A stretch of DNA of 32,000 bases, from positions 3,570,001 through 3,602,000 of the forward strand of contig NC_002939.5 in NCBI RefSeq assembly GCF_000007985.2. Reading direction: 5' to 3'. Below are positions 11,833 to 24,309 of this stretch, in pieces (the stretch's first letter is position 1; every line of letters begins with the position of its first letter). The DNA is from Geobacter sulfurreducens PCA. GTDB lineage: Bacteria; Desulfobacterota; Desulfuromonadia; Geobacterales; Geobacteraceae. The notes under the pieces are model-generated. The model searched no databases. It was not told the origin of the DNA and saw nothing but the letters and a program-made list of their open reading frames with translations. The position numbers were made by a program, and so were the translations under genes.

Positions 11833-14800
11833 TCAAAAAAGGTCCAGCTGCTCCCCCTTCGGCTTCCGCCGGCCGCCACGGCCCGGCTCCGGCTGCCGGA
11901 TCAACCGTCCAGGGATTTCTCCCGCGAAGCGGGAAAGCGGCCGCTCAGCAGGACTGACCCAGGGGCGTTCAGAGGAGGCGCTGAGCACGAGCGTCTCCTT
12001 CGCCCGGGTCATACCCACATAGAAAAGCCGCCGTTCCTCCTCCACATCCACGTCCCGCCAGAGAGTGCACGGGATAAGCCCCTCCTCGCACCCCGCCAGG
12101 AAGACCACGGGGAATTCCAGACCCTTGGAGGCATGGAGCGTCATGAGCGCCACCGCCTCGGCCCGCTCGTCATAAACCGTTTCGGCGGCATACTCCCGCA
12201 GATGCCGGTCAAAGGCGACGATGTCCCGGCCGAAGCTTCCGGCAAGGGCCAGGAGCCGCCTACAGTCGGCATGCCCCTGATCCGTGCCGAACAGGGTCAG
12301 GGCTTCACCCAGGGCCGGAGCAATTCCCTCACGACCGGCCACGGACCGGAAGCGTTCAAGGAGAGCAGTCAGCTCGGCCATCCGATGCGCAACAGGGGGC
12401 GGCAGCTCGACACCGGCCACGAGCGCCGGGAAATCGCCGGTCAGGGGAAGGGCCTCTTCCAGCCGGCGGATGGTACCCTCGCCGACCCCCGGCAGATCCT
12501 GTGCCAGAGCCAGCCAGTCGGCCAGCTCCGTACTCCCCGCCGCTGCTCGGACAAACCGGGTGGCCGCGCCCGCGACCGGGCCGAGGAAGTAGGGAACGGC
12601 GCCCACCAACTGGAACGGAATCCCCCGCCGGTCCAGGGCGTTGGCCAACTCGTCGGCCTGCCGCGCCAACCGGTAGAGTATGGCGATGTCGCCGAAGCTC
12701 CGGCGGCTGTCCTGGTCGCCGCCCCGCCCCGAGGCGATGGAGAAACTGCTGATCCCCCCCATGAGCTCCTCGATGCGCCGAACGATAAACTCGGCCTCCG
12801 CCGCCGGCGTCGGAGCCCTGTACAACTCGATCGCTCCCTCCCGCGCCGTGGTAGGCGTTAGACTGATGCCGCTCCTGAGCCGGTTGTGGGCGATGACGGC
12901 CGATGCGGCCTCGACGAGGGGCGCCGCCGACCGGTAGTTGCGGCTGAGGTCCAGCCGCCGGGTGGCGGGAAGGTCGGCGAAACGGAAGAAAAAAGAGGGA
13001 TCACTACCCCGGAAGCCATAGATGGCCTGGTCTGGGTCGCCGATGGCGAAGATCGTGGCCTCTTCCCCCAGTATCTCCACCAAGGCGTACTGGGGAGCGT
13101 TCAGGTCCTGGAATTCGTCCACGAAGAGATGGGCGACGCCGGCGCACACCCGCCGCCGGAAGGTCTCGTCGCCTCTCAGGCGGCGGACCAGGGCCGGGAC
13201 CACGTCGTCCAAGTCCATGGCGCCGCGCCGGGCCAGTTCGTCAAGATAGAAACGCACCGGCTCCGGTGCGTCCCCGCCATTGTCGCGATGCAGAAAATCG
13301 GCGATCTCCGCGGCCAAGCCGCTTCGCTCCCGGACACCGATTTCGGGAAAGAGGCGCCGCAACAGCCGCTCCCGGCTTTCGTCCCCCACCACGACCCGGT
13401 CGGGCTCCTCGCGCCTGAGCCAGTCGAGGCAGAAGCGGTGAAAAGTGCCGACAAACACCTGTCCGGCAGCCTCGCCCGCCACCGCGGCCAATCGCTCCCG
13501 CACCTCGGCGGCTGCCCGGTTCGTGAAGGTGATGGCGCAGACCCGGGCCGGGTCCGTGCCCGGCGCAGCAAGCAGTGCCGCAAGCCGCGCCACCAGGGTG
13601 TAGGTTTTGCCGGTACCCGGTCCAGCGGCCACCAGCACCCGGGATGCATCGCAGGCGAGCGCCTCGGCCTGGCCGGGATCGGGTCCCGCGGCAGGCGCCG
13701 GATCGGGCGGGGTCACCGATCTCCGCCCGCTGGCTGCCGGAGGCCGGCTGATCGCTTTGGAACGCCCCCGCCGGGATGGAGCGCCGTCGCTGAAAAGCCC
13801 CCCCTGTCCTGACAGCCGAGCCACCTCACCCTCCTCGAAGACCTTGATGGTTCCGTACTCGCCGTCAAAGCCCCCCTGGCGGATCACCCGGCCCTCCCTC
13901 ATCCGGACGATCGCCTCGGCCAGAACCGGCGACACGACGGCAATCTCGCCAGGATCGACCCGGAGGAGGATATCCAACTCCGAACCGAACCGCTCGATCA
14001 GCCGGACGTAGTGGCTCATGACCTGCTTGGAGGCCGGGCCCACTCCGAGGATTTCTCCCACCACTTCCGTCAGCGGCGCCAGGCTGAAAAACGTAGGGGC
14101 ATCGTCGGGAAAGAGCGGCGTATCCCGGTCGGCCAGTTCCAGCACCCGGTGGAGCACCCCCACAGTGAGGGGACGGCCGCACACGGGGCAGCGTCCCCCA
14201 TGCCGGCGCGTCTCGTCGGGCTCGAAGCGGATGCCGCAGTCCCGGTGGCCGTCCATGTGGTACTTCCCTTCCTCGGGAAAGAATTCCACGGTACCGCGGA
14301 AGGTTTCGCGGTGGTTGCCCTTCAGGGCGTCGCGCAGTGAAAAGAAATCGAAGCCGGTGCTGAAGAGATTGGCCTCGCGCCCCAGTCGGGACGGGGAATG
14401 GCAGTCAGAATTGGAGATGAGGGCAAACCGGTCGAGGGCGGAAATCAGCCGGTTCATGTCCGGATCGGACGAAAGGCCGGTTTCCAGGGCAAAGACGTGA
14501 GGGGCAAGGTCGCCGAAGCACTCTTCCACCGTATCGAAGCCGGACTTGGAGCCGAACAGGGAAAACCAGGGGGTCCAGATGTGGGCCGGCACCAGGAATC
14601 CGTCCGGCGTGGCCTCCAGCAGGATTTCCAGCAGATTCCGGGAGTCGAGGCCTAGGATGGGGCGGCCGTCGGACTCGATATTGCCGATGCCGGCCAACCG
14701 GGCGTTGACCCGTTCGGCAGCGGCAAAGTCGGGGACGTAGAGGAGGTTGTGGACCTTGCGCACCGCCCCGTGCCGCTTGTAGATGCAGCTGATCTCCGCG

Positions 14801-15069
14801 GTGAGCATGAAACGGACCGGTGCGGTTGAAGGAGCGAGTCCGGCCAAGGGGGCGGGGGCATTCTCGTCCCGCAGCCTGAAGAAGCCCGGTTCGGCCGGCT
14901 CCAACACCTCCCGCAGCCGGGCAAACCACCCCGGATGGGTAAAGTCGCCCGTGCCCACCACCTGAATCCCCTTCACCCTCGCCCACCCGGCAAGCCCGGC
15001 AGGGTCGCACTCCTTGCTCGTTGCCCGGGAAAAGGGCGAATGGATATGGAGATCGGCGCAATAGTCCAT
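11833..15069 (-). CDS. Fusion protein: N-terminal EndoQ-like PHP-domain nuclease plus C-terminal UvrD/PcrA-type SF1 helicase
   Basis: N-terminal ~415 aa (aa 1 to ~415): DLHIHSPFSRATS, PAHIWTPWFSLFGSKSGFD, ETGLSSDP, SNSDCHS, FFPEEGKYHMDGHRDC...CPVCG, GGFDGEYG. Next is a Pro/Ala/Arg linker. Helicase part: AGPGTGKT (13603-13626), VDEFQDLN, GDPDQAIYGFRG, LSRNYRS, HASKGLEF, YVGMTRA. Confidence 0.88.
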   Translation of the reverse strand: MDYCADLHIHSPFSRATSKECDPAGLAGWARVKGIQVVGTGDFTHPGWFARLREVLEPAEPGFFRLRDENAPAPLAGLAPSTAPVRFMLTAEISCIYKRHGAVRKVHNLLYVPDFAAAERVNARLAGIGNIESDGRPILGLDSRNLLEILLEATPDGFLVPAHIWTPWFSLFGSKSGFDTVEECFGDLAPHVFALETGLSSDPDMNRLISALDRFALISNSDCHSPSRLGREANLFSTGFDFFSLRDALKGNHRETFRGTVEFFPEEGKYHMDGHRDCGIRFEPDETRRHGGRCPVCGRPLTVGVLHRVLELADRDTPLFPDDAPTFFSLAPLTEVVGEILGVGPASKQVMSHYVRLIERFGSELDILLRVDPGEIAVVSPVLAEAIVRMREGRVIRQGGFDGEYGTIKVFEEGEVARLSGQGGLFSDGAPSRRGRSKAISRPPAASGRRSVTPPDPAPAAGPDPGQAEALACDASRVLVAAGPGTGKTYTLVARLAALLAAPGTDPARVCAITFTNRAAAEVRERLAAVAGEAAGQVFVGTFHRFCLDWLRREEPDRVVVGDESRERLLRRLFPEIGVRERSGLAAEIADFLHRDNGGDAPEPVRFYLDELARRGAMDLDDVVPALVRRLRGDETFRRRVCAGVAHLFVDEFQDLNAPQYALVEILGEEATIFAIGDPDQAIYGFRGSDPSFFFRFADLPATRRLDLSRNYRSAAPLVEAASAVIAHNRLRSGISLTPTTAREGAIELYRAPTPAAEAEFIVRRIEELMGGISSFSIASGRGGDQDSRRSFGDIAILYRLARQADELANALDRRGIPFQLVGAVPYFLGPVAGAATRFVRAAAGSTELADWLALAQDLPGVGEGTIRRLEEALPLTGDFPALVAGVELPPPVAHRMAELTALLERFRSVAGREGIAPALGEALTLFGTDQGHADCRRLLALAGSFGRDIVAFDRHLREYAAETVYDERAEAVALMTLHASKGLEFPVVFLAGCEEGLIPCTLWRDVDVEEERRLFYVGMTRAKETLVLSASSERPWVSPAERPLSRFAGEIPGRLIRQPEPGRGGRRKPKGEQLDLF

Positions 15070-15152: not shown

Positions 15153-15281
15153 TCACTTCTTATCGCAGCATCCCCCCTCGCACCCCTGGCAATGCCCCTT
15201 CTTCTTCCAGACGGAGCGGTAGAGGAGCCAAGCCGCCACCCCGAGGATGGCGGCCGAGATGATCATGTCGGTGGTTCCCAT
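15153..15281 (-). CDS. FeoB-associated Cys-rich membrane mini-protein (42 aa), not in the ORF track
   Basis: The ATG lies 3 nt after the feoB stop. My hand translation is MGTTDMIISAAILGVAAWLLYRSVWKKKGHCQGCEGGCCDKK. It has one TM helix followed by a basic, Cys-rich tail, as in the FeoB-associated Cys-rich family. Confidence 0.7.
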   Translation of the reverse strand: MGTTDMIISAAILGVAAWLLYRSVWKKKGHCQGCEGGCCDKK

Positions 15282-15284
15282 GGT

Positions 15285-17528
15285 TTACCCTCCCAGGCCA
15301 AGGAGTGTTCCCCCCTGGTAGACGATAAATGCCACCCCCCAGGCCAGGGCCGTCTGGTAGAGGAAGGCAACCCCGAACCACTTCCAGGAACCGAACTCCT
15401 GGCGCATGGCGATGGCCACCACCACGCACGGCATGTAGAGGAGCACGAAGCACATGAAGGCGTAGGCCGAAAGCGGCGTGAACGCCTGACCCACCGCAGC
15501 CTTGAGGGATGTCTGATCCTCCTCTTCCTCGGCCGCTCCGCCGATGCCGAGGGTTGTGGTGACTGCGGTCTTGGCCGCAACACCGAAGGAGACGGCGATC
15601 TCCTTCAGATCCTCGCCCAGGGTCGGGGCCGGGGCCTCACTCTTCTCCTTTTCCTTCTTCTCGGGAGCGTAGATCTCGCCCATGGTCCCCACGACGATTT
15701 CCTTGGCAATGACGCCGGTAATGAGGGAGGAGGCCGCCTCCCAGGTGCCGAAGCCCAGGGGTGCAAGAGCCGGTGCCACCACCTGGCCCGCCTGGCCCAG
15801 GCACGAATCCTTCTTGTTCTCCACTCCCCAGGGGAGGTTAAGGAGGAACCAGACAAAAATCGAAACCGCCAGGATATAGGTTCCCGCCTTGATCAGAAAG
15901 TGCTTCCCCTTCTCCCAGGTGTGGAGGCAGAGGCTCCTGAACGAAGGCATCCGGTAGGGGGGAAGTTCCATGATGAACATTGGCGCCTCGCCCCGGAAGA
16001 GCGTCTTCTTGAAGATGAGCCCCATGGCCATGGCAAGGACGATCCCCATGACATAGAGGGACCAGATCACCGTGCCGGAGTTGGCGGCGAAGAAGGTGCC
16101 GGCAAAGAGGACGTAGACCGGCAGCCGCGCCCCGCACGACATGAGGGGCAGCAGAAGCGCGGTCAGCGCCTTGTCCCGGGGATTCTCAAGGGTGCGCGTC
16201 GCGTAGATGCCCGGGACGTTGCAGCCGAAGCCCAGGAGCATGGGGATGAACGATTTGCCGTGGAGGCCGATGGCGTGCATGGCCCGGTCCATGACAAAGG
16301 CCGCCCGCGCCATGTAGCCGCTCCCCTCCAGGAAGGTGATGAAGAACATCATGGCAAAGATAACCGGGACAAAGACCAGGACAAATCCGACCCCAGCGAT
16401 GACGCCGTCGTTCACCAGCGAGACGGTCCAGTCGGGAGCGCCGATCCCCCCGAGGATTGCTTCGGACCACCGCTTGAAGGGACCGCCCGCCATGCCGTCG
16501 ATCCAGTCGGCAAAGGGAGAGGATAGGTCGAAGGTGAGCTTGAACACCAACCACATGGCGGCCAGGAAGATGGGTATCCCCAGGAACCGGTTCAGAACGA
16601 TTCGGTCGATCTTTTCGGTGAGCTCCATCCGCCGCAGTTCAGGCTTTTTCAATACCTCGCGGGTGAGGCCGGATGCCAGGCCGTAACGGGCATCGGCCAT
16701 GAGGGCTTCGATATCTTCGCCGTGAGCCCGGCGCAGGTGATGGAGCGCCTCGTCAAGCATGGCGTCGTGGCCGAAGTTCGCCTCTTTCGCAACGTGGCCG
16801 TCTCCTTCCATGAGCTTCAGCACCAGCCAGCGCGGCGGATACTTTTCGACGAGTTGCGGATGATTCTTCCCGAGGGCGCTCTCCACGAACTCGGCCGCGG
16901 TCTCGATATCCTCGCCATAGTTGAGGCGGGCCGGAGTGTGAACCGCGGGATCGTCCGCCGTCCTGTCAACCCCGGCCAGCAGCTCGTCAAGGCCGCTCCT
17001 CCTGGTGGCTGAGGTGGGGACGACCGTGATGCCGAGCATCTGCTCGATTCCTTTCACGTCGATAGCGTACCCCTTGGCCTCGGCCTCGTCATAGATGTTG
17101 AGGGCCATCACCAACGGGATCCCCAACTCCAGGAGCTGCACCGTGAGGTAGAGGTTTCGTTCCAGGTTGGTGGCATCCACCACGTTGATGATCAGGTCGG
17201 GGCGTTCGTGGACTAGGTAATCGCGCGCGATGATCTCTTCCTGGGTATAGGGGGAGAGGGAGTAGGTGCCGGGGAGGTCCACCAGCCGGATCTTCCGCCC
17301 CTGGAACTCGAAGGATGCCTCTTTTTTCTCTACGGTGACGCCGGCCCAGTTCCCTACCTGGAGACGGGTACCGGCAATGGCGTTGATCAGGGTCGACTTG
17401 CCCGAGTTGGGGTTGCCGGCCACTGCCACGGTTATCGCCCGCTTCGTCACGGGACGCAGGAAGGCCTTCTGCCCATCACCCTGTTCATCCTCCGTCAGGC
17501 CATTCCTCTTTTTCGCCTGCACGCTCAT
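15285..17528 (-). CDS. feoB: Ferrous iron transporter FeoB
   Basis: N-terminal G-domain GNPNSGKSTL, DLPGTYSL and NIYD, then a polytopic membrane domain. 747 aa. ATGA overlap with the upstream feoA. Confidence 0.97.
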   Translation of the reverse strand: MSVQAKKRNGLTEDEQGDGQKAFLRPVTKRAITVAVAGNPNSGKSTLINAIAGTRLQVGNWAGVTVEKKEASFEFQGRKIRLVDLPGTYSLSPYTQEEIIARDYLVHERPDLIINVVDATNLERNLYLTVQLLELGIPLVMALNIYDEAEAKGYAIDVKGIEQMLGITVVPTSATRRSGLDELLAGVDRTADDPAVHTPARLNYGEDIETAAEFVESALGKNHPQLVEKYPPRWLVLKLMEGDGHVAKEANFGHDAMLDEALHHLRRAHGEDIEALMADARYGLASGLTREVLKKPELRRMELTEKIDRIVLNRFLGIPIFLAAMWLVFKLTFDLSSPFADWIDGMAGGPFKRWSEAILGGIGAPDWTVSLVNDGVIAGVGFVLVFVPVIFAMMFFITFLEGSGYMARAAFVMDRAMHAIGLHGKSFIPMLLGFGCNVPGIYATRTLENPRDKALTALLLPLMSCGARLPVYVLFAGTFFAANSGTVIWSLYVMGIVLAMAMGLIFKKTLFRGEAPMFIMELPPYRMPSFRSLCLHTWEKGKHFLIKAGTYILAVSIFVWFLLNLPWGVENKKDSCLGQAGQVVAPALAPLGFGTWEAASSLITGVIAKEIVVGTMGEIYAPEKKEKEKSEAPAPTLGEDLKEIAVSFGVAAKTAVTTTLGIGGAAEEEEDQTSLKAAVGQAFTPLSAYAFMCFVLLYMPCVVVAIAMRQEFGSWKWFGVAFLYQTALAWGVAFIVYQGGTLLGLGG

Positions 17529-17752
17529 GCCATCACCTCCACCGCGATCCCTTCCGCCTCATTCTTGCGGAGCGACAGATTGTAGTTCTTGATCGACACC
17601 TCGATGGGATCGCCGAGGGGGGCGATCTTGATTACCCGCACCTCTTCCCCCACCAGAACACCCATATCCATGAGTCGCCGCTTCAGGGGGCCGATCGCTC
17701 CGATGGCGGTAATCCGCCCCTTTTCCCCCGGCCTGAGCTTTGCCAGATTCAT
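17525..17752 (-). CDS. feoA: FeoA-family protein
   Basis: 75 aa. LRPGEKGRITAI...RRLMDMGVLVGEEV is the FeoA/SH3-like pattern. GAGGAGG RBS. Confidence 0.9.
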   Translation of the reverse strand: MNLAKLRPGEKGRITAIGAIGPLKRRLMDMGVLVGEEVRVIKIAPLGDPIEVSIKNYNLSLRKNEAEGIAVEVMA

Positions 17753-17755
17753 CGT

Positions 17756-18010
17756 TTACCTCCTCACCATTATTTTCATTGCCATGCCGCGGTCGACGGC
17801 GATTCGCGATTCATCCACCTTTACAAGCACCGGCCCGCTGCTGTTGTTGAGCATCTCAACCCGCTTGCCGACGCGTAGCCCCATGTCCTCTACCCGGACA
17901 TCGCCCTTCTCCCGTTCGTCCCGGCAGAGGCCGCTACAGTGGGGCTTGATGGTTCTGACTTCGACAATCTCCCCGTCCTCGCCGGGGTTCAGCAGTCCCA
18001 GGGGTATCAT
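17756..18010 (-). CDS. feoA: FeoA-family protein (second copy)
   Basis: I prefer the internal ATG at 18010, which has an AAGGAG RBS 6 nt upstream. The 18031 start abuts a strong hairpin and has no RBS. LNPGEDGEIVEV...MGLRVGKRVEM is the FeoA pattern. Confidence 0.82.
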   Translation of the reverse strand: MIPLGLLNPGEDGEIVEVRTIKPHCSGLCRDEREKGDVRVEDMGLRVGKRVEMLNNSSGPVLVKVDESRIAVDRGMAMKIMVRR

Positions 18011-18032
18011 GGGAACTCCTTTCGTGAACATT

Positions 18033-18063
18033 CCGGCAGGGGGTGCTTCATTCCCCCTGCCGG
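18033..18063 (-). other. Intercistronic stem-loop between the porin gene and feoA
   Basis: Perfect 11-bp stem CCGGCAGGGGG/CCCCCTGCCGG with a 9-nt loop and no U-tract on the transcribed (minus) strand. Confidence 0.5.
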
Positions 18064-18081
18064 GGTTGTCGGAATATGCCG

Positions 18082-19491
18082 TTAAAAACTGATCAGTGAG
18101 CGCAGCCCCAGTGCCACCACGTCATCCCTGCTGCTGTCCCCCAGAGGATTGATCAGGTACTGAACCACAGGCGCGATGCTGATCTGCTCGTTCACCTGGA
18201 CCTTGTAGTAGAGCTCCGCCAGTTTTTCCTGTGAGTCAGCACCCACGGCCTTCACCTGTCCGTAGGCAAAGCCGAGGACATCATCCTTGCGCTCGGGAAG
18301 CAGCCCGGCGTACTGTCCGCCGGCGCTCCAGGCCATCTTCGTGGCATAGACGTCCTCGTCACGCTGGCCATAGCGCACGAACAGGGTCAGCTTGTCGGTC
18401 ACCTGCTGGTCAGCGCTGATCCCGAACCCGAAGGCGTTTTTTTCCTGCAGCTTCACCTCGCCATCGGCACGCGCTCCGTCCAGGCTGCCATAGACGCGGT
18501 AGTTCCCTTCCAGTTCACCTACCTTGAGGGTGTAGTCCAGCTCGGCTATTCCGTAGCCGTGCGAGAACACATCCTCCGTGTCGGTGTCGCCGCTGCCGTA
18601 GCCGAGGCCGAAGGTGAGCGGCTCGCCCAGCTTTGCCTGGAGCCTGGCTCCCGGCCCGTTGCCGGGGGCACCCAGAACCGCCGAGTTCACGAAGGCTCCG
18701 GCCAGAAACTGGCTGTTCTCGTCGTTTGCCACGCCGTTGGCGTCGAAGTAGTTGGTCAGGTCGATCTTGCCGGCGGTTAGGATCAGGCGTTCATCGAACG
18801 CCGCATGCTCTACCCATGCTTCGCGGAAGCGGACCGTATCACCGGTGCTGCCGGCCACGGCGTTCAGCAGCGAGAAGCTGGGCACCCTGGTGTCGATGCC
18901 GTTGCCGCCGGTCGCCTCCACGTCGATCACCGCGATGGTGTTCTCACCCACCTTGAAACTGAAGACCAGGTCTCCCCTGCCGACCACGTCCACGTGGTCG
19001 GAGGGCTCATTGCCGATGGAGCCCTGGAGGACCCCCACCAGTCCCCCGCTGAGGGAGATGTTCTTGGTGATGGCGGTGAGCCTGGTGCCGAGACCCTCCC
19101 GGCGCTGCTGGAAGGTACGGGTGCGTGCCAGGAGCATTTCCCCGCGCAGTTCGTCCTGGAGCTCCGCCAGGAGCACCAGGTCTTCCTTGGCCACGGCGGC
19201 CGAGCCTTCCTTCACCACTTTCTCCGCCAGTTTCTCGGTCAGCAGCTCCAGCACCACCGCCAGGTCCGTGCGGGTGTAGCACACCTGGCCCGCCTCGAAT
19301 TCCTTTGAGAACAACCCCTCCACCTGATACGTGGCCGCAAGCCGTAAGATCTCCTGGCAGGCCTTGTGCTTTACCTCGACCTTCTCGGGAAGAGCAAATT
19401 CCGGATTGCGCGCCTGGGCTCCCGTGGAGCCGACGACCAGACTCCCGAGCAGCGCGAGACCCACCACCAACACCTTCTTCATGTTCCGCAT
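18082..19491 (-). CDS. Outer-membrane beta-barrel porin, OprB (carbohydrate-selective porin)-like, with an N-terminal helical segment
   Basis: Start at ATG 19491, with AGGAGG 4 nt upstream. Signal peptide MRNMKKVLVVGLALLGSLVVGSTGAQA. A helical or coiled region is followed by alternating beta-strand pattern. The C-terminal ...LRSLISF ends in Phe, as OMPs do. Confidence 0.78.
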   Translation of the reverse strand: MRNMKKVLVVGLALLGSLVVGSTGAQARNPEFALPEKVEVKHKACQEILRLAATYQVEGLFSKEFEAGQVCYTRTDLAVVLELLTEKLAEKVVKEGSAAVAKEDLVLLAELQDELRGEMLLARTRTFQQRREGLGTRLTAITKNISLSGGLVGVLQGSIGNEPSDHVDVVGRGDLVFSFKVGENTIAVIDVEATGGNGIDTRVPSFSLLNAVAGSTGDTVRFREAWVEHAAFDERLILTAGKIDLTNYFDANGVANDENSQFLAGAFVNSAVLGAPGNGPGARLQAKLGEPLTFGLGYGSGDTDTEDVFSHGYGIAELDYTLKVGELEGNYRVYGSLDGARADGEVKLQEKNAFGFGISADQQVTDKLTLFVRYGQRDEDVYATKMAWSAGGQYAGLLPERKDDVLGFAYGQVKAVGADSQEKLAELYYKVQVNEQISIAPVVQYLINPLGDSSRDDVVALGLRSLISF

Positions 19492-19554
19492 GTTCCCTCC
19501 TTGTCGTGTCGCTCCAGCCGGCAGATACCGCCATCGGCTCCGTCGACCACCATA

Positions 19555-19572
19555 AAAATGAATTCCATTTTC
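19555..19572. promoter_or_regulatory. AT-rich inverted repeat, candidate Fur-type operator upstream of the porin-feo genes
   Basis: AAAATG-AATTC-CATTTT(C). It matches 12 of 19 positions of the classical Fur box GATAATGATAATCATTATC and lies ~65 nt upstream of the porin start. Confidence 0.3.
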
Positions 19573-19667
19573 AATTGCTGAGCGTAAACTGTCCACGCAT
19601 TCATGCCGATGCCCGAGGTCCAGTGCTGCTCCGGCCTTTGCGTGCGTCGTTCCATAAGTAATGTTTG

Positions 19668-20717
19668 TCAGGAATGGTTTTTCCGCCGACCCAGGTCCGG
19701 CCGATCCGATTCCCCGACATGGGCGACCGTGGCGGTAAGGCAACTCAGGCAATCCCTAAGCGTGCAGACACCACACGAATGGTGCATGAAGACTGGGATA
19801 CCATTCTGCTTCGCCACGGCCATGGCCTCGTTCTTCACCCGGTGGGACACCTTGTTGGTGAAGATGACCAAGGCATCGAAGCGCTTCAATTTGACGGCGA
19901 TATTGTTTTCCGACTGGGAGAACATTCGCAGCTCCACCCCTGAACGGACCGCCTCTTCCCGATAGTGTTTCTCCAGGCGGTCCATGCCGCCGATCACCGC
20001 AATGCACATGGCCTTACCCCCATAACTATGACTTTCAATTTCATCAAAACCGACAACTGGGCGTGGTGACCCGTCCGCCAGACAATCGAGCGCCGACGTG
20101 CATCTGTTCAAGCGTTCCGCCATCCGAGCCCGGCAACAGCGAAAGACTTCGGCAAGGCGCAGACTCTCCCTGGGATCGCCGAATATCTTCCACGGCCCCT
20201 GGCAGGCGAACGGAATCCTCACCAACCCCATGAATGCCGCCACATCTTTAAGGGGATAGCCTAGAAACACCCCGATCTCATGAGGGAATCGGTCACCGTC
20301 AATGCGAGTCGACAGTTCCGTCAGCACTTCATCAAGCCCGGTTGCAGCACCGTATCCCGCCCGCGCCAGCACTGCTGAAGCACTGGGGCGGCGCAGCAGC
20401 GCCTCAAGGGCTTCCGGGCGATAAAGAAGCAGCAACAATGAATCCCCACGGTCGGACAACTCCCGGACGGCAAGGCCGCTCTCGCCCAGCACCATCGCCC
20501 CCCACTGCTTCCAGAGGACGTAAAGGTTGCGGCCGCATGCACGGGTACGGTTGGCGATACCGATCAGGTTGGCGGGCTTTTCGCCCGCAAGCACCTCAGC
20601 CGCTTCCAGCGCGAGAAACGACGCAAGACACTCCCGGGGCTCATCGAACCGTTCCGCCAGATCGTGCCAGACCGGCCGCCGGACACCGTGCCGCATTTCC
20701 GAAATCATCTGCCCCAT
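19668..20717 (-). CDS. Uncharacterised cytoplasmic protein, DUF3793-like N-domain fused to DUF2325-like C-domain with a terminal Cys cluster
   Basis: EVLAGEKPANL and FPHEIGVFLGYPLKDV...CQGPWKIF resemble DUF3793. CIAVIGG...DALVIFTNKVSHRVKNEAMAVAKQNGIPV resembles DUF2325. The C-terminus carries CGVC-x4-CLSC. It starts 18 nt after the pccH stop. Confidence 0.75.
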   Translation of the reverse strand: MGQMISEMRHGVRRPVWHDLAERFDEPRECLASFLALEAAEVLAGEKPANLIGIANRTRACGRNLYVLWKQWGAMVLGESGLAVRELSDRGDSLLLLLYRPEALEALLRRPSASAVLARAGYGAATGLDEVLTELSTRIDGDRFPHEIGVFLGYPLKDVAAFMGLVRIPFACQGPWKIFGDPRESLRLAEVFRCCRARMAERLNRCTSALDCLADGSPRPVVGFDEIESHSYGGKAMCIAVIGGMDRLEKHYREEAVRSGVELRMFSQSENNIAVKLKRFDALVIFTNKVSHRVKNEAMAVAKQNGIPVFMHHSCGVCTLRDCLSCLTATVAHVGESDRPDLGRRKNHS

Positions 20718-20735
20718 GGCAACCCCTTTCCCTCG

Positions 20736-21188
20736 TCAGTACGTGACCGTGATGGCGTTAAGCTCTTCCTTGGTAATGTCGGGCCATTTTTTGAGATTCC
20801 AGACCCCGACCCACGCCTTGAAAACCGCGAGGTTTCTTTGTCGTTCTTCCTCGGTGGCACCGAGATGCCGGTACATATTCCCCGGCTTGGCATCCTTGCT
20901 GTTTTTGCCGTCGTCAAGCCTGCGCATGAGGGCGCCGGTGTCAGGCCACGCCGTATAAAAAATCAGGTGGCTGTATGTGTCCATCCGCATCCCCTGCCCC
21001 TTGGCAAGCCATTTTTCCTTCTCGGCCTTGAAGGCGTGGTATTCGGGGGCAGCATCCGCGCCATGGCAGCCTGCACACCTGACATCGAAGATCGGCTTGA
21101 TGTCCTTGCGATAGGTCACCTCGCCACCCCATGCGGTAGCCGCAACCAAAAGGCCCATAACAAGCGAAAGAATAGTTGTTTTTTGCAC
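20736..21188 (-). CDS. pccH: Periplasmic monohaem c-type cytochrome PccH
   Basis: Single CAGCH motif in the context IKPIFDVRCAGCHG. Signal peptide ...LLVAATAWG|GE leaves a 129-aa mature part. I prefer the GTG start at 21188 (AAGGGG RBS 6 nt upstream). The TTG at 21233 in the track would put a predicted promoter and operator inside the ORF. The sequence matches my recollection of GSU3274. Confidence 0.82.
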   Translation of the reverse strand: MQKTTILSLVMGLLVAATAWGGEVTYRKDIKPIFDVRCAGCHGADAAPEYHAFKAEKEKWLAKGQGMRMDTYSHLIFYTAWPDTGALMRRLDDGKNSKDAKPGNMYRHLGATEEERQRNLAVFKAWVGVWNLKKWPDITKEELNAITVTY

Positions 21189-21208
21189 CGTGGACCCCTT
21201 GTTGAATT

Positions 21209-21223
21209 TGAAAATGTTTTTCA
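21209..21223. promoter_or_regulatory. Fur-type 7-1-7 inverted repeat overlapping the predicted pccH transcription start
   Basis: TGAAAAT-g-TTTTTCA matches 12 of 14 positions of the TGATAAT-n-ATTATCA Fur core. It lies immediately downstream of the candidate -10 element. Confidence 0.4.
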
Positions 21224-21253
21224 CTTTTAACAAGGCCGGGGATATGTTGTCAA
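21224..21253 (-). promoter_or_regulatory. Candidate sigma70 promoter for pccH
   Basis: On the minus strand: TTGACA (21253-21248), 18 nt spacer, TG-n-TAAAAG (extended -10, 21229-21224). Confidence 0.4.
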
Positions 21254-21335: not shown

Positions 21336-21364
21336 TTGATTCTCCGACGCCGGTTTCTTAGAAT
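21336..21364 (+). promoter_or_regulatory. Candidate sigma70 promoter for the 21395 operon
   Basis: TTGATT (21336-21341), 17 nt spacer, TAGAAT (21359-21364). It lies ~30 nt upstream of the GTG start. Confidence 0.45.
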
Positions 21365-21394: not shown

Positions 21395-22624
21395 GTGGTC
21401 ACAATCCTACTCATTGCCGATCAAGCTCGGCTTGAAGGACTCTTCAGCTTCACGAAGGAGTCTTCTCAGATTCACTTCAGGATGTGTCGGACCCTGAACC
21501 AGGGCACCGAGGAGATGGCCGAATCCTCCCCCGACTTCCTCTTCATCCAGAACCATCTGTCGGGACTTTCGGGCGAAATTCTCGCACGGCACCTGATCTC
21601 GGGCCAAACGGACGGGCGACCGACGATCGTTCTGTTCGGCGATGCGACCGAGTGCACACCGGTGCCAGGCGTAATCGACTCATGCCTGGACCTCACTCAG
21701 GCGGATGTGGTCCTCTCCGCCGCCATTATCGGTCTCATTACCGGCGCCATGCACCGGCAGGACGTGCCGGCGGTGACGGAGGCAGGGGCCGAAACGGAGG
21801 AGGCCGCCACCCCATCCCAGGCGACGCAGGTGGCCGACGATGTCCCCCCGACTCCGGAACCAACGGAGCCGTCCCCCTTTGACCAGAAATTACAGAGTGT
21901 CTTGGAAGAGACCCTTCCCCCGGTGCCTCTAGCCGAGATCGAGGAGCACGTGGCCCTTGGCCGGCAGGCTGAACCTGCGCATGAAGACGCGCCCCAGGAA
22001 CAGCCTGCCCGCAGTCGGCCCGGCGCCTTGCGGTCCACGGTCAGGCCGTTCGCTATCGGGATAGCTGTGTTGATTGTCGCGGCAGCGGTCATCTATCTCG
22101 CCGTCTCGCTTGGCACCAACTCCACAACGCACCCCACGCAGACCCCAGTTGCCGAGGTTAAACCTACGCCTTCCGGCACAGCGCAGCAGAAGCCAGCGTC
22201 GCAGCCGCCGGCACCTGCACCGGAGACATTGCCTCCGGCGATCGCTCCCGCCCAGACCCCACCGGCCGGCATGACCGAACTGCCCCCCTTCATCCCTCGC
22301 CAGAAACCTGACCGCGCGTATGGCGAAAAAAATCCCGGATGGGAGCGATACCTGGGCGCCCGCACCGAGTTCAAGGTCTACCGCGAGGCAGGTATCATCA
22401 AGGCGATCCAGTCCATCGACCGTAGCGGTGTCGGGATCCCCGAATCGTTCATGCGCGGAGCCCTTGAGCAAATGACCCGGGTACGACAGTTCTCAATCAA
22501 CGGCAAGGAAACCAAGGGCTCTTTCCACGTGGAAAAGGGTACGACCACGGCCGGGGCCAGGATACTGATCTACCGGACAGCGCCCAAAGGCTCCATCAGG
22601 GCGTTTGTAGTCTATTTCCCCTGA
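21395..22624 (+). CDS. Bitopic membrane protein: degenerate receiver-like cytoplasmic domain, TM helix, Pro-rich spacer, and an unknown ~120-aa periplasmic domain
   Basis: GTG start with a GGGGGA RBS. Receiver-like strand pattern ILLIAD / PDFLFIQNHLSGLSG / TIVLFG, but without the acceptor Asp. TM helix FAIGIAVLIVAAAVIYLAV. Spacer KPASQPPAPAPETLPPAIAPAQTPP. Confidence 0.65.
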   Translation: MVTILLIADQARLEGLFSFTKESSQIHFRMCRTLNQGTEEMAESSPDFLFIQNHLSGLSGEILARHLISGQTDGRPTIVLFGDATECTPVPGVIDSCLDLTQADVVLSAAIIGLITGAMHRQDVPAVTEAGAETEEAATPSQATQVADDVPPTPEPTEPSPFDQKLQSVLEETLPPVPLAEIEEHVALGRQAEPAHEDAPQEQPARSRPGALRSTVRPFAIGIAVLIVAAAVIYLAVSLGTNSTTHPTQTPVAEVKPTPSGTAQQKPASQPPAPAPETLPPAIAPAQTPPAGMTELPPFIPRQKPDRAYGEKNPGWERYLGARTEFKVYREAGIIKAIQSIDRSGVGIPESFMRGALEQMTRVRQFSINGKETKGSFHVEKGTTTAGARILIYRTAPKGSIRAFVVYFP

Positions 22625-22656
22625 TGGCCCTGCCATCCCGCTCTCCGAGGAACCAC

Positions 22657-24309
22657 ATGAACACATGCCATTTCTACCGGGTCCAGTTGCTTCGTGCCTC
22701 TCTTCTGCTCATGGCCATTAGCGCCACGGCGTCAGCCTCCGCCACCTCTTTCGAACTCGACGTGAAGGACCTGCAGACCGTTGCCCCGGCCAAGCGCGCT
22801 CCCAAGCGCAAAGCCCCCGCTCCGGCCGCTTCTGCCGAAACCAAGCGCGATACCGTCCCTGCCGAAACGAAGAGGGGTGTTTCCCGTTATACCGTTAAGC
22901 CGGGTGACTTCATCTTCAAGATACTGATGCGGGAATACGGCCTTTCAAATGCGGCGGCTGAAGCGCTCATCCCTGAAATCCAGAGGATCAACAACCTGCG
23001 GAGCATCACTCGTCTTTCGGTTGGACAGACCATCCTCATTCCCCTTGAGGGGCCACGGGCTGCTGTACGCGTTCAGGAGTTCGGTGAACGCCGGGAGACG
23101 GCCGAACCCGCCGCAACCGTAGCAGTTGCCCCCCCTACGGAGCCATCGCCCCAGGTTGTTGAATCAGGCCCGGCTCCACCGTCTGAGCAGACAGCCCCCC
23201 CTGTTACTGAAGCCGCCGCTCCCGTGCCCCCCCGGCCCGAGCCGGCACCGGCAACGCGCCCCGCTGAAGCAGCACCACCGATCTCCCCGGCACCGGTCGT
23301 CGTTTCGGCGCCCTCCTCTTTCAGCCGGCGGCTCATCACCCTGTGGCAGAGCCTCGTCCCCGGCCAGGAAAGGGTGGAACCCATCACACTCAACGGCAGG
23401 GTGCTCCCGCCCGAGGAATTCCCCCTTCTTCTCGCCGCTGACGGTGGGAAGATACTGGTCGACATGAAAGGGACTCTGCTTCCCCGCGACAAAAGCACCT
23501 TGGCTGAAAGACATCCCGATATCCGGCTGGTCTCGCGCGGAGCCAGCAGTGAACGGGATTTTTTCACCGTCCTGCTGCGCACCGCGGAATTTGCCCACGT
23601 GGAAGAAGACGCCGTCGCCACAATAGGCTCCGATCCCCAGCTCACGGTCAAGGCCGACTACCGAATTACCAGGCTGCCGGCAGTTGCCACGCGTGGACCG
23701 GAAAATGTATTTCTCTTTCTTGAGCGTAACGGGTCCTGCCTCCCAGCAGCACTCATCTCGGCCCTTGCCGATAACGGGATCAACAGTGTGGAATTCTGCG
23801 ATGTCGCTCCGCAGCCGCCGTCGGTACCGGGCTACGAGTTGAGGAGCGTAACCGGCACGACCCCGTGCGAATTGGCTGTCCAATTGCTTGGTGTCCTGGC
23901 CGTGAAGCTTGACCGCAACCGGATTGTATCGGGCTCCATGGGGGAGAATGCGGAGAGCCGGTTCAGCATCCGCGTGGATGGATATTTTGAAAACGACGGG
24001 AAGAAGTTCATCCTGAGCTGTAACGACAATGACTCCTACAACTACACGCTCTTTCGCCTGCTGCAGCTGGAAGGATACGGCATCATCCAACTGGGAGACA
24101 AAGACGACTTCGCCACCGTCGCGGACAAGATCCTCACGGTTCTGCGCTATCCCCACTCCTTCGGCCGCCATGATTTCACCCATGACCGTTATACCGTATC
24201 GGCGCTGGGGTTCAGGGTGACGCGGCTGGGGCCGGTTAGCGGCCGCATGCTGATCATCGATCGCCCCGTGGACCCGGCATTCGCAGAATTATTACAATGG
24301 GAACGCTAG
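22657..24309 (+). CDS. Secreted LysM-domain protein with a Pro-rich spacer and a large unknown C-terminal domain
   Basis: I prefer the ATG at 22657 (AGGA RBS), which gives the signal peptide MNTCHFYRVQLLRASLLLMAISATASASA. The alternative ATG at 22624 overlaps the upstream stop. The LysM domain YTVKPGDFIFKI...LSVGQTILIPL spans ~22888-23046. Confidence 0.75.
   Translation: MNTCHFYRVQLLRASLLLMAISATASASATSFELDVKDLQTVAPAKRAPKRKAPAPAASAETKRDTVPAETKRGVSRYTVKPGDFIFKILMREYGLSNAAAEALIPEIQRINNLRSITRLSVGQTILIPLEGPRAAVRVQEFGERRETAEPAATVAVAPPTEPSPQVVESGPAPPSEQTAPPVTEAAAPVPPRPEPAPATRPAEAAPPISPAPVVVSAPSSFSRRLITLWQSLVPGQERVEPITLNGRVLPPEEFPLLLAADGGKILVDMKGTLLPRDKSTLAERHPDIRLVSRGASSERDFFTVLLRTAEFAHVEEDAVATIGSDPQLTVKADYRITRLPAVATRGPENVFLFLERNGSCLPAALISALADNGINSVEFCDVAPQPPSVPGYELRSVTGTTPCELAVQLLGVLAVKLDRNRIVSGSMGENAESRFSIRVDGYFENDGKKFILSCNDNDSYNYTLFRLLQLEGYGIIQLGDKDDFATVADKILTVLRYPHSFGRHDFTHDRYTVSALGFRVTRLGPVSGRMLIIDRPVDPAFAELLQWER

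Follow-up and report, generated by a model that had tools for sequence, protein, structure and literature searches.

The cathode cytochrome gene pccH of Geobacter sulfurreducens adjoins a Fur-box-bearing feoB-2 locus: a candidate redox accessory to Fe(II) uptake

Why should the gene for a periplasmic cytochrome, known for its part in drawing electrons from cathodes, stand at the head of a same-strand array that ends in genes for ferrous iron uptake? The question is raised by a stretch of the Geobacter sulfurreducens PCA genome (NC_002939.5, positions 3,570,001 to 3,602,000; 32,000 nucleotides (nt), hereafter ‘the window’, to which all coordinates refer), in which pccH (GSU3274) is followed on the minus strand by six further genes, among them feoB-2. 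The reading we favour, with moderate confidence, is that of a Fur-repressed feoB-2 Fe(II)-uptake locus, organised as two transcription units, with PccH as its periplasmic redox accessory.

Working from pccH down the array, open reading frames (ORFs) and family searches give seven head-to-tail minus-strand genes between 15153 and 21233, with the families and all of the gaps as described in the initial annotation of this DNA:

20736-21188, minus strand: pccH (GSU3274), periplasmic monohaem c-type cytochrome, haem motif CAGCH; 150 residues from the probable GTG start at 21188
19668-20717, minus strand: genY, a DUF3793 plus DUF2325 fusion, cytoplasmic; Pfam matches of 147 and 86 bits
18082-19491, minus strand: OprB-family porin (GSU3271), PF04966, 107 bits; signal peptide; ribosome-binding site (RBS) GGAGGG
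17756-18010, minus strand: feoA, first copy (GSU3270), PF04023, 55 bits; RBS AAGGAG
17525-17752, minus strand: feoA, second copy (GSU3269 / GSU3268.1), PF04023, 81 bits
15285-17528, minus strand: feoB-2 (GSU3268), GTP-dependent Fe(II) permease, TIGR00437, 647.5 bits against a cut-off of 315.65
15153-15281, minus strand: FeoB_associated Cys-rich membrane peptide of 42 residues, PF12669, 38 bits against a cut-off of 27

In the same order, the junctions are gaps of 18, 176, 71 and 3 nt, a 4-nt ATGA overlap, and a last gap of 3 nt. A correction applies to the upper end of the array: position 21253, formerly taken as its limit, opens a TTGACA hexamer resembling a −35 element and belongs to no codon. 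In profile searches FeoB has its complete set of domains (FeoB_N, FeoB_Cyto, two Gate domains and FeoB_C), and both feoA genes adjoin the feoB cassette, their products scoring above the family cut-off of 23 bits. GSU3268 carries the name feoB-2 in PMC2700814, where the FeoB-2 proteins of the Geobacteraceae are reported to cluster with characterised Fe(II)-specific FeoBs. None of the seven array proteins matches FeoC, the sole ORF 3′ of feoB being that of the PF12669 peptide. The porin belongs to the OprB family over residues 181-469 (PF04966 cut-off 22.9 bits), its barrel preceded by a helical N-terminal region of ~150 residues; the NCBIfam model NF033921, ‘iron uptake porin’ of the cyanobacterial SomB type, was considered for GSU3271 and rejected, since it reaches just 22 bits against a cut-off of 100, over a 36-residue C-terminal stretch.

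Control by iron is indicated at two places. We scanned the entire window with the delta-proteobacterial FUR consensus WTGAAAATNATTTTCAW, allowing up to 3 mismatches, and compared the result with shuffled sequences (n = 100). Three matches are found where 0.08 would be expected by chance, and no shuffle of the 100 reaches three; all of them fall where Fur-like repeats had been noted before, at the pccH promoter and within the 176-nt gap, and the stem-loop noted in the 71-nt gap is likewise present:

21248-21253, minus strand: TTGACA, −35-like hexamer of the pccH promoter; weak −10 (TTAAAA/TAAAAG) 17-18 nt further on
21208-21224, unstranded: Fur box 1, minus-strand sequence GTGAAAAACATTTTCAA; 2 mismatches to the consensus
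19567-19595, minus strand: internal sigma-70-like promoter, TGGACA-17-GAAAAT; 9/12 matches in a promoter scan
19552-19574, unstranded: Fur box 2, two overlapping sites offset by 6 nt; 3 mismatches each
18033-18063, minus strand: stem-loop in the porin-feoA gap; 11-bp G+C stem, 9-nt loop

Fur box 1 lies between the −10 region of pccH and its start codon, 20-36 nt upstream of the likely start, and Fur box 2 overlaps the −10 of the internal promoter-like site, so that a Fur-box match coincides with a promoter-like element in both cases. A simple promoter scan missed the pccH promoter because its −10 is weak.

Both boxes had been predicted, exactly, by Rodionov et al. in 2004 (PMC545781), who placed the cytochrome/genY pair immediately upstream of the feoAB operon and read the locus as two units, genX(cytochrome)-genY and porin-feoA-feoA-feoB2. 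Fur box 1 is identical to the site they give for genX-genY; Fur box 2 contains TTGAAAATGGAATTCAT, their site for the porin-feoA-feoA-feoB2 operon, and they assign tTGAAAATGgaaTTCAT to ‘X-feoA-feoA-feoB2, porin, Fe2+ transporter’. The suggestion that this set of genes had never been described as a unit therefore falls: boxes and gene adjacency alike were in print in 2004. Within the literature accessible to us, a search found no paper that ties the name PccH, or its cathode phenotype, to Feo or Fur; what it returned on PccH, Feo and Fur was the 2004 study (under the name genX), a Pd preprint and papers on CsrA/FliW. (‘PccH’ in papers on G. metallireducens denotes a porin-cytochrome complex, a different thing.) The Fur boxes, control by Fur and organisation of the locus are thus already published, and it is the comparative evidence that is new here.

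The genes also move together. In the accessible part of a public RNA-seq comparison of delta-csrA and wild-type biofilms, log2 fold-changes are +3.92 for GSU3268, +3.72 for GSU3269, +4.44 for GSU3270, +3.80 for GSU3271 and +4.71 for GSU3274; feoB-1 is likewise up, and genY does not appear in that part of the table. By reverse-transcription quantitative PCR, gsu3268 and gsu3274 change in concert, in opposite directions in delta-csrA and delta-fliW strains. From this joint movement we take it that the array behaves as one regulon. Furthermore, a preprint (bioRxiv 10.1101/319194), which cites Embree 2014, gives feoAB and gsu3274 as directly Fur-regulated. With two Fur boxes, this reported Fur control and the co-induction of GSU3268-71 with GSU3274, the earlier idea that the layout represents an iron-regulated route from outer membrane to cytoplasm is supported.

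One regulon need not mean one transcript. The 176-nt gap holds a promoter-like site of its own in addition to a Fur box, which makes two Fur-controlled units likelier than one; the sequence thus suggests two adjacent units, with read-through possible, rather than a single seven-gene operon. The terminator scan finds no terminator-like site 3′ of genY, and beyond the 42-residue peptide gene there is neither a terminator-like structure nor unusual stability (z = +0.76). The stem-loop ahead of feoA is stable (18005-18090 folds at −31.2 kcal/mol; z = −3.45 against shuffles). It was rejected as an intrinsic terminator: its tail, AAUGUUCACG, has no U-tract and the terminator scan did not call it. 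An Rfam search of the whole window returned no families, so the hairpin matches no known RNA element; it might stabilise the transcript or cause partial attenuation.

That pccH has a Fur box and promoter separate from those of the porin-feo unit is a point in favour of the main rival to our reading. PccH might be an iron-sparing monohaem carrier, induced on derepression from Fur to replace haem-rich triheme and multihaem cytochromes when iron is scarce, in the manner of the flavodoxin-for-ferredoxin swap; it would lie near feo through clustering of the Fur regulon and would itself have no action on iron. The same delta-csrA values, as far as they are accessible, agree with such a replacement, in that ppcB (log2 fold-change −5.2) and macA go down while GSU3274 rises by +4.7; flavodoxin, moreover, is in the Fur regulon of Desulfovibrio (Rodionov 2004, PMC545781). 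Nevertheless, ordinary respiration has not been reported to suffer from deletion of GSU3274, and we regard this explanation as unlikely, for reasons of gene order that emerge from the comparative data below.

The protein itself is well defined. Over the 129 residues of its mature part (37-165 of the ORF), PccH has 100% identity to PDB 4RLR, and the match to PF22297 (200 bits against a cut-off of 24.4) spans the full profile (1-133 of 133), with a single haem site and a signal peptide, placing PccH within that family; CAGCH and residues C17, C20, H21 and M84 are invariant across 52 family members. The mechanically called ORF (20736-21233) extends to a TTG at 21233; judged from the sequence, the true start is probably the GTG at 21188, which has an AAGGGG RBS and yields a 21-residue signal peptide and a product of 150 residues, homologues having 149-151.

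Deletion of pccH abolishes current consumption and leaves current production intact, and the transcript is higher in current-consuming biofilms. On these grounds one could hold that PccH is a dedicated electron-uptake cytochrome, linking cathodes or minerals to the inner membrane. Its location next to feo, and the Fur boxes, would then be fortuitous, and the in-vitro transfer of electrons from GSU2515 to PccH that has been reported would suit this well. That transfer also means that the partners of PccH, put down as unresolved in the initial annotation, are so no longer in full, while its reaction is still described in those terms and a 2026 review considers the electron-uptake pathway largely unresolved. 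Yet a dedicated role in uptake would leave the Fur boxes, the direct Fur control given in the preprint and the co-induction with feo to coincidence, and the GSU3274 deletion oxidises the extracellular donor anthrahydroquinone-2,6-disulfonate (AHQDS) normally, which argues against a general function of PccH in inward electron transfer. After 17 years of evolution on anodes one strain has a truncated pccH, an observation uninformative on electron uptake. We judge this explanation improbable and, given the Nitrospirota data that follow, the weakest of those considered.

The phenotype could instead be secondary, arising through iron physiology or through polarity on genY or genes further downstream; to judge from the arrangement of the genes, the original deletion could have been polar in this way. 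Heidary 2020, as cited in PMC9300713, describes breakdown of cytochromes and FeOx deposits in cathode biofilms, so that pccH may be induced on cathodes for reasons of iron physiology. The iron-sparing explanation can draw on the same source: were cathode biofilms iron-stressed, loss of a replacement carrier would account for the block in cathodic electron flow.

Does the linkage of pccH to feo extend beyond G. sulfurreducens? PccH homologues form ~2,000 clusters, many of them 70-80% identical across phyla. Our survey took one genome per GTDB species and comprised 53 true PccH loci together with 27 spurious loci, matched through the haem motif only, as controls (loci bear L numbers). Neighbour families were scored by tblastn within about 5 kb of pccH, since in 9 loci a crude ORF caller had preferred ORFs antisense to pccH; those counted as iron-type were Fur, FeoA/B, FeoB_associated, DUF2325, DUF3793, the Phenol_MetA_deg outer-membrane barrel and the DtxR-FeoA repressor. 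Such neighbours occur at 19/53 true loci and at 0/27 controls (Fisher p = 1e-4). In a neighbour-joining tree they are concentrated in the clade that holds Geobacter PccH (15 of 17 loci), the remaining two having almost no downstream sequence and a Fur-box-like site at −38 or −32 from pccH; a second clade, from Nitrospiraceae (L032, L034, L035), is iron-linked throughout.

In the Desulfuromonadales there is L001, a metagenome-assembled genome (MAG) with the order pccH-DUF3793-DUF2325-feoA-feoA-feoB-peptide, no porin, and ahead of pccH a single promoter of the form TTGACG-N17 with Fur box, laid out as in G. sulfurreducens. Nitrospirota have a cassette of fur, pccH, DUF2325, outer-membrane barrel, feoA, feoA, feoB and FeoB_associated (L007, L013, L014, L032), confirmed by two metagenome loci with independent gene calls and Pfam labels (L081, L085); in Nitrospira (L034, L035) pccH comes at the tail of the cassette. 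The FeoB_associated peptide gene is kept after feoB in L001, L007, L032, L034, L035 and L086. From the variants in gene order we take the core of the locus to be Feo and the DUF proteins, with pccH and the outer-membrane channel as frequent add-ons. That channel differs between the groups: a Phenol_MetA_deg (PF13557) barrel of ~250-270 residues occupies the position between DUF2325 or fur and feoA in nine loci (L007, L013, L014, L024, L032, L034, L035, L081, L085). The barrel is not homologous to the OprB porin that it replaces, and this suggests that either protein provides outer-membrane entry for the Feo cassette.

Signs of Fur control accompany the gene order. Between −120 and +20 of pccH there are 9 Fur-box-like sites in 7 loci, where ~0.6 would be expected, and between pccH and DUF2325 such sites occur in 7 loci against ~0.5 expected. 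The fur gene lies ~550-700 bp upstream of pccH on the same strand in L007, L009, L010, L013, L016 and L032, and is divergent in L081, L085 and L003. Many Nitrospirota thus have fur adjoining pccH, and often a Fur-box-like site ahead of DUF2325, giving a fur-pccH / DUF2325-barrel-feo arrangement. In Desulfuromonadales and Nitrospirota alike, then, the clade of PccH orthologues shows conserved linkage of pccH to iron-related genes, as the proposed tie to iron uptake would have it.

These data bear on the two explanations already introduced. Several Nitrospirota in which pccH directly follows fur, with a Fur box parting it from the DUF2325-feo genes, are what an iron-sparing carrier controlled in its own right might look like; against this, pccH stays beside feo, at its head or its tail, across phyla, and shared regulation alone needs no adjacency. 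Nor is Nitrospira known to use a PpcA-type periplasmic pool. For a cytochrome dedicated to electron uptake, the difficulty is the conservation of the fur/feo/DUF2325 neighbourhood in Nitrospirota, including Nitrospira, a genus not known to feed on cathodes.

The second gene of the array, genY, is part of the conserved core. It combines DUF3793 (residues ~35-208) with DUF2325 (~238-326), the latter bearing an invariant H..CGxCx4CxxC motif. Its nearest homologues are separate proteins, a DUF3793 protein of ~224 residues (P0121, 94% identical) and a DUF2325 protein of ~100-125 residues (P0241, 90%), and the two domains are encoded by separate neighbouring genes in G. pickeringii and in L001. As the two ORFs of L001 (10414-11427) share a frame and are parted by one stop codon, we read genY of G. 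sulfurreducens as a fusion by stop loss, with the junction near 20000-20060. In an AlphaFold2 model the fused linker is disordered (predicted local distance difference test (pLDDT) <50 at residues 222-245), whereas the DUF3793 domain is modelled at pLDDT >90 (residues ~20-210); Foldseek finds no match for it in the PDB at E <= 1e-3, and DUF3793 may have a fold for which no structure has been solved. The DUF2325 model has a small Rossmann-like 2x2 alpha/beta domain followed by a helix that bears the Cys motif, and Foldseek returns generic Rossmann-like 2x2 and PTS-IIB (phosphotransferase system IIB) folds only, from which no function was derived. A search of the PDB by sequence gave a lone match for genY, to a RecA stretch, which we discarded as spurious. 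At most, genY can be called a candidate cytoplasmic accessory that binds metal or Fe-S.

Both genY domains are linked to Fur boxes in Desulfuromonas, beside a predicted ferric reductase, and in Desulfovibrio (Rodionov 2004, PMC545781). The DUF3793 gene of Desulfuromonas is divergent from that reductase gene, a FUR box being common to both (same source), and a stand-alone DUF3793 gene in L088 (7001-9447) neighbours Fur-feoB1-DtxR/FeoA and a multihaem cytochrome; hence DUF3793 is repeatedly tied to iron redox genes even where pccH is missing.

One might accordingly ask whether PccH and genY form a sensory or regulatory pair, with PccH reporting periplasmic redox state or Fe(II)/Fe(III) and the Cys4 protein tuning FeoB in the manner of FeoC, neither of them being a reductase. 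For each DUF, association with feo or Fur boxes does not depend on pccH, and no FeoC is found in the locus; the Cys motif of DUF2325 is invariant, and among genes induced under oxidative stress that for the Cys-rich DUF2325 protein of C. jejuni, Cj1384c, is under the strongest PerR control. Set against this, a soluble periplasmic cytochrome has no evident route of communication with a cytoplasmic protein, and Pfam and Foldseek reveal no DNA-binding or signalling domain in either half of genY. We give little credence to this possibility.

Returning to the Fe(II)-uptake reading, the order of events would be as follows. When iron is sufficient, Fur would repress both units, pccH-genY and porin-feoA-feoA-feoB-FeoB_associated peptide. 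On derepression, iron would reach the periplasm through the OprB-type porin; the periplasmic cytochrome pool would reduce PccH, which would most likely convert Fe(III), whether chelated or newly oxidised, to Fe(II), or hold Fe(II) in that state, as substrate for FeoB; and FeoB, together with the FeoA pair and the 42-residue Cys-rich peptide, would carry Fe(II) to the cytoplasm, where the DUF3793/DUF2325 protein with its Cys4 motif would act as Feo accessory. From gene context we infer that reduction of Fe(III), or protection of Fe(II), is probably what PccH does. Its midpoint potential is about −35 mV; the Fe(III)-citrate and Fe(III)-NTA (nitrilotriacetate) couples, at ~ +370 to +385 mV, lie well above it. 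A wider proposal, which we advance only tentatively and hold with less confidence than the reading of this one locus, is that the PccH family defines an unrecognised ‘cytochrome-assisted Feo’ module common to Desulfuromonadales and Nitrospirota, the cytochrome being a dedicated reductant or redox guard and the cathode role secondary; its parts, put forward with the same reserve, would be Fur, the monohaem cytochrome, the DUF2325/DUF3793 Cys4 protein, an outer-membrane channel, two FeoA, FeoB and FeoB_associated.

Saying this, a number of observations weigh against assigning PccH to iron uptake. The link is one of gene context and regulation, not of biochemistry or genetics; what is on record for the deletion is that cathodic current is lost, which, with the transfer from GSU2515 to PccH, fits an electron-uptake chain; and it is not obvious why an anaerobe from habitats rich in Fe(II) should require an Fe(III) reductase in the periplasm. 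In G. pickeringii DUF3793-DUF2325-feoAAB-peptide occurs with no pccH, and G. metallireducens is without feoB-2 (PMC2700814), from which it follows that PccH is dispensable for Feo. More distant PccH clades (Geobacteraceae MAGs, beta- and gamma-proteobacteria, Planctomycetota) have unrelated neighbours and no iron genes, and a close homologue, L083, is likewise without iron genes nearby; a search for residues specific to the PccH clade in iron context found none. The 70-80% identity across phyla suggests, further, that whole cassettes have moved horizontally, so that fewer of the observations are independent than their number implies.

Some features of the surroundings, and of PccH relatives elsewhere, are recorded here in their own right. 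An eighth same-strand gene (11833-15069, minus strand) begins 83 nt past the Feo array and encodes a protein of 1078 residues with UvrD-type helicase domains at residues ~466-1033; its N-terminal region of ~450 residues has no Pfam match at E <= 0.001. Divergent from pccH is an ORF of 409 residues with a Pro/Ala-rich middle and no Pfam match (21395-22624, plus strand), which shares one base with the start of a gene for a 561-residue LysM-domain protein (22624-24309, plus strand); a promoter-like site (21336-21364, plus strand) lies in the 161-bp intergenic region that also holds the pccH promoter. In a more distant clade of Geobacteraceae MAGs (L026-L029, L031, L037; 57-66% identical) PccH is found with HtpX, a Tim44-like protein, a TFIIB-type Zn-ribbon protein and TerC, a conserved neighbourhood that looks related to cell envelope or metal stress. 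The N-terminal haem stretch of PccH, KDIKPIFDxRCxGCHG, matches by itself many loci from Verrucomicrobiota, Planctomycetota and others (L054-L080), has a weak NCBIfam match to the haem region of hydrazine synthase alpha, and seems to be a motif common to larger cytochrome-domain proteins.

What would follow if PccH were an accessory of this kind? The electromicrobiology literature widely cites PccH as the only protein whose necessity for taking up electrons from cathodes has been demonstrated; were it primarily an Fe(II)-uptake accessory induced by iron starvation, the cathode phenotype would need re-examination, and engineering electrosynthesis strains around it might be the wrong course. Feo, which among bacterial Fe(II) importers is the most widespread, has poorly understood accessory factors and would gain conserved candidate partners—a periplasmic cytochrome, DUF2325, DUF3793 and outer-membrane channels—of relevance also to the environmentally important Nitrospira. 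Although the locus was already known, this reframing of PccH is directly testable.

How does the locus compare with systems already described? With canonical Feo (FeoA/B/C of E. coli and its relatives; the Fe(II)-specific FeoB of P. gingivalis and C. jejuni) it shares the FeoB domains, an upstream feoA with overlapping or 3-nt junctions, and control by Fur; it differs in its two FeoA, in lacking FeoC and having the 42-residue Cys-rich peptide, and in three extra genes, those for the periplasmic monohaem cytochrome, the DUF3793/DUF2325 Cys4 protein and the outer-membrane channel.

Reductive routes are known from cyanobacteria and from Vibrio cholerae VciB, in which an outer-membrane porin and periplasmic Fe(III) reduction are combined with FeoB. 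Like the cyanobacterial iron porins, that of Geobacter is of OprB type, albeit with the weak NCBIfam match given above; the proposed reductant, by contrast, would be a locus-encoded soluble c-type cytochrome rather than a terminal oxidase or membrane protein. EfeUOB (with the haem peroxidase EfeB) and FtrABCD (with the cupredoxin FtrB) oxidise Fe(II) for an Ftr1-type permease, and resemble our locus in encoding a periplasmic redox protein together with an iron permease under iron regulation. FeoB takes Fe(II), so the direction expected here is the opposite one, reduction, and there is no sequence relationship.

With the porin-cytochrome (Pcc) conduits of Geobacter (OmaB/OmbB/OmcB, the Ext clusters) the locus has in common a barrel gene and a periplasmic cytochrome gene in one neighbourhood; PccH, however, has one haem, there is no outer-surface cytochrome, the porin is a diffusion porin of OprB type, and genY and a promoter stand between the cytochrome and porin genes. 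With one haem motif in seven genes and no second cytochrome, we rejected the locus as a conduit of this sort. The nearest precedent remains the FUR regulon of Rodionov 2004 (PMC545781), which has the same locus, the same FUR boxes and the same two-operon reading; what was then genX, unnamed and without known orthologues, is now PccH, with a structure, a cathode phenotype and a clade of relatives linked to feo and fur.

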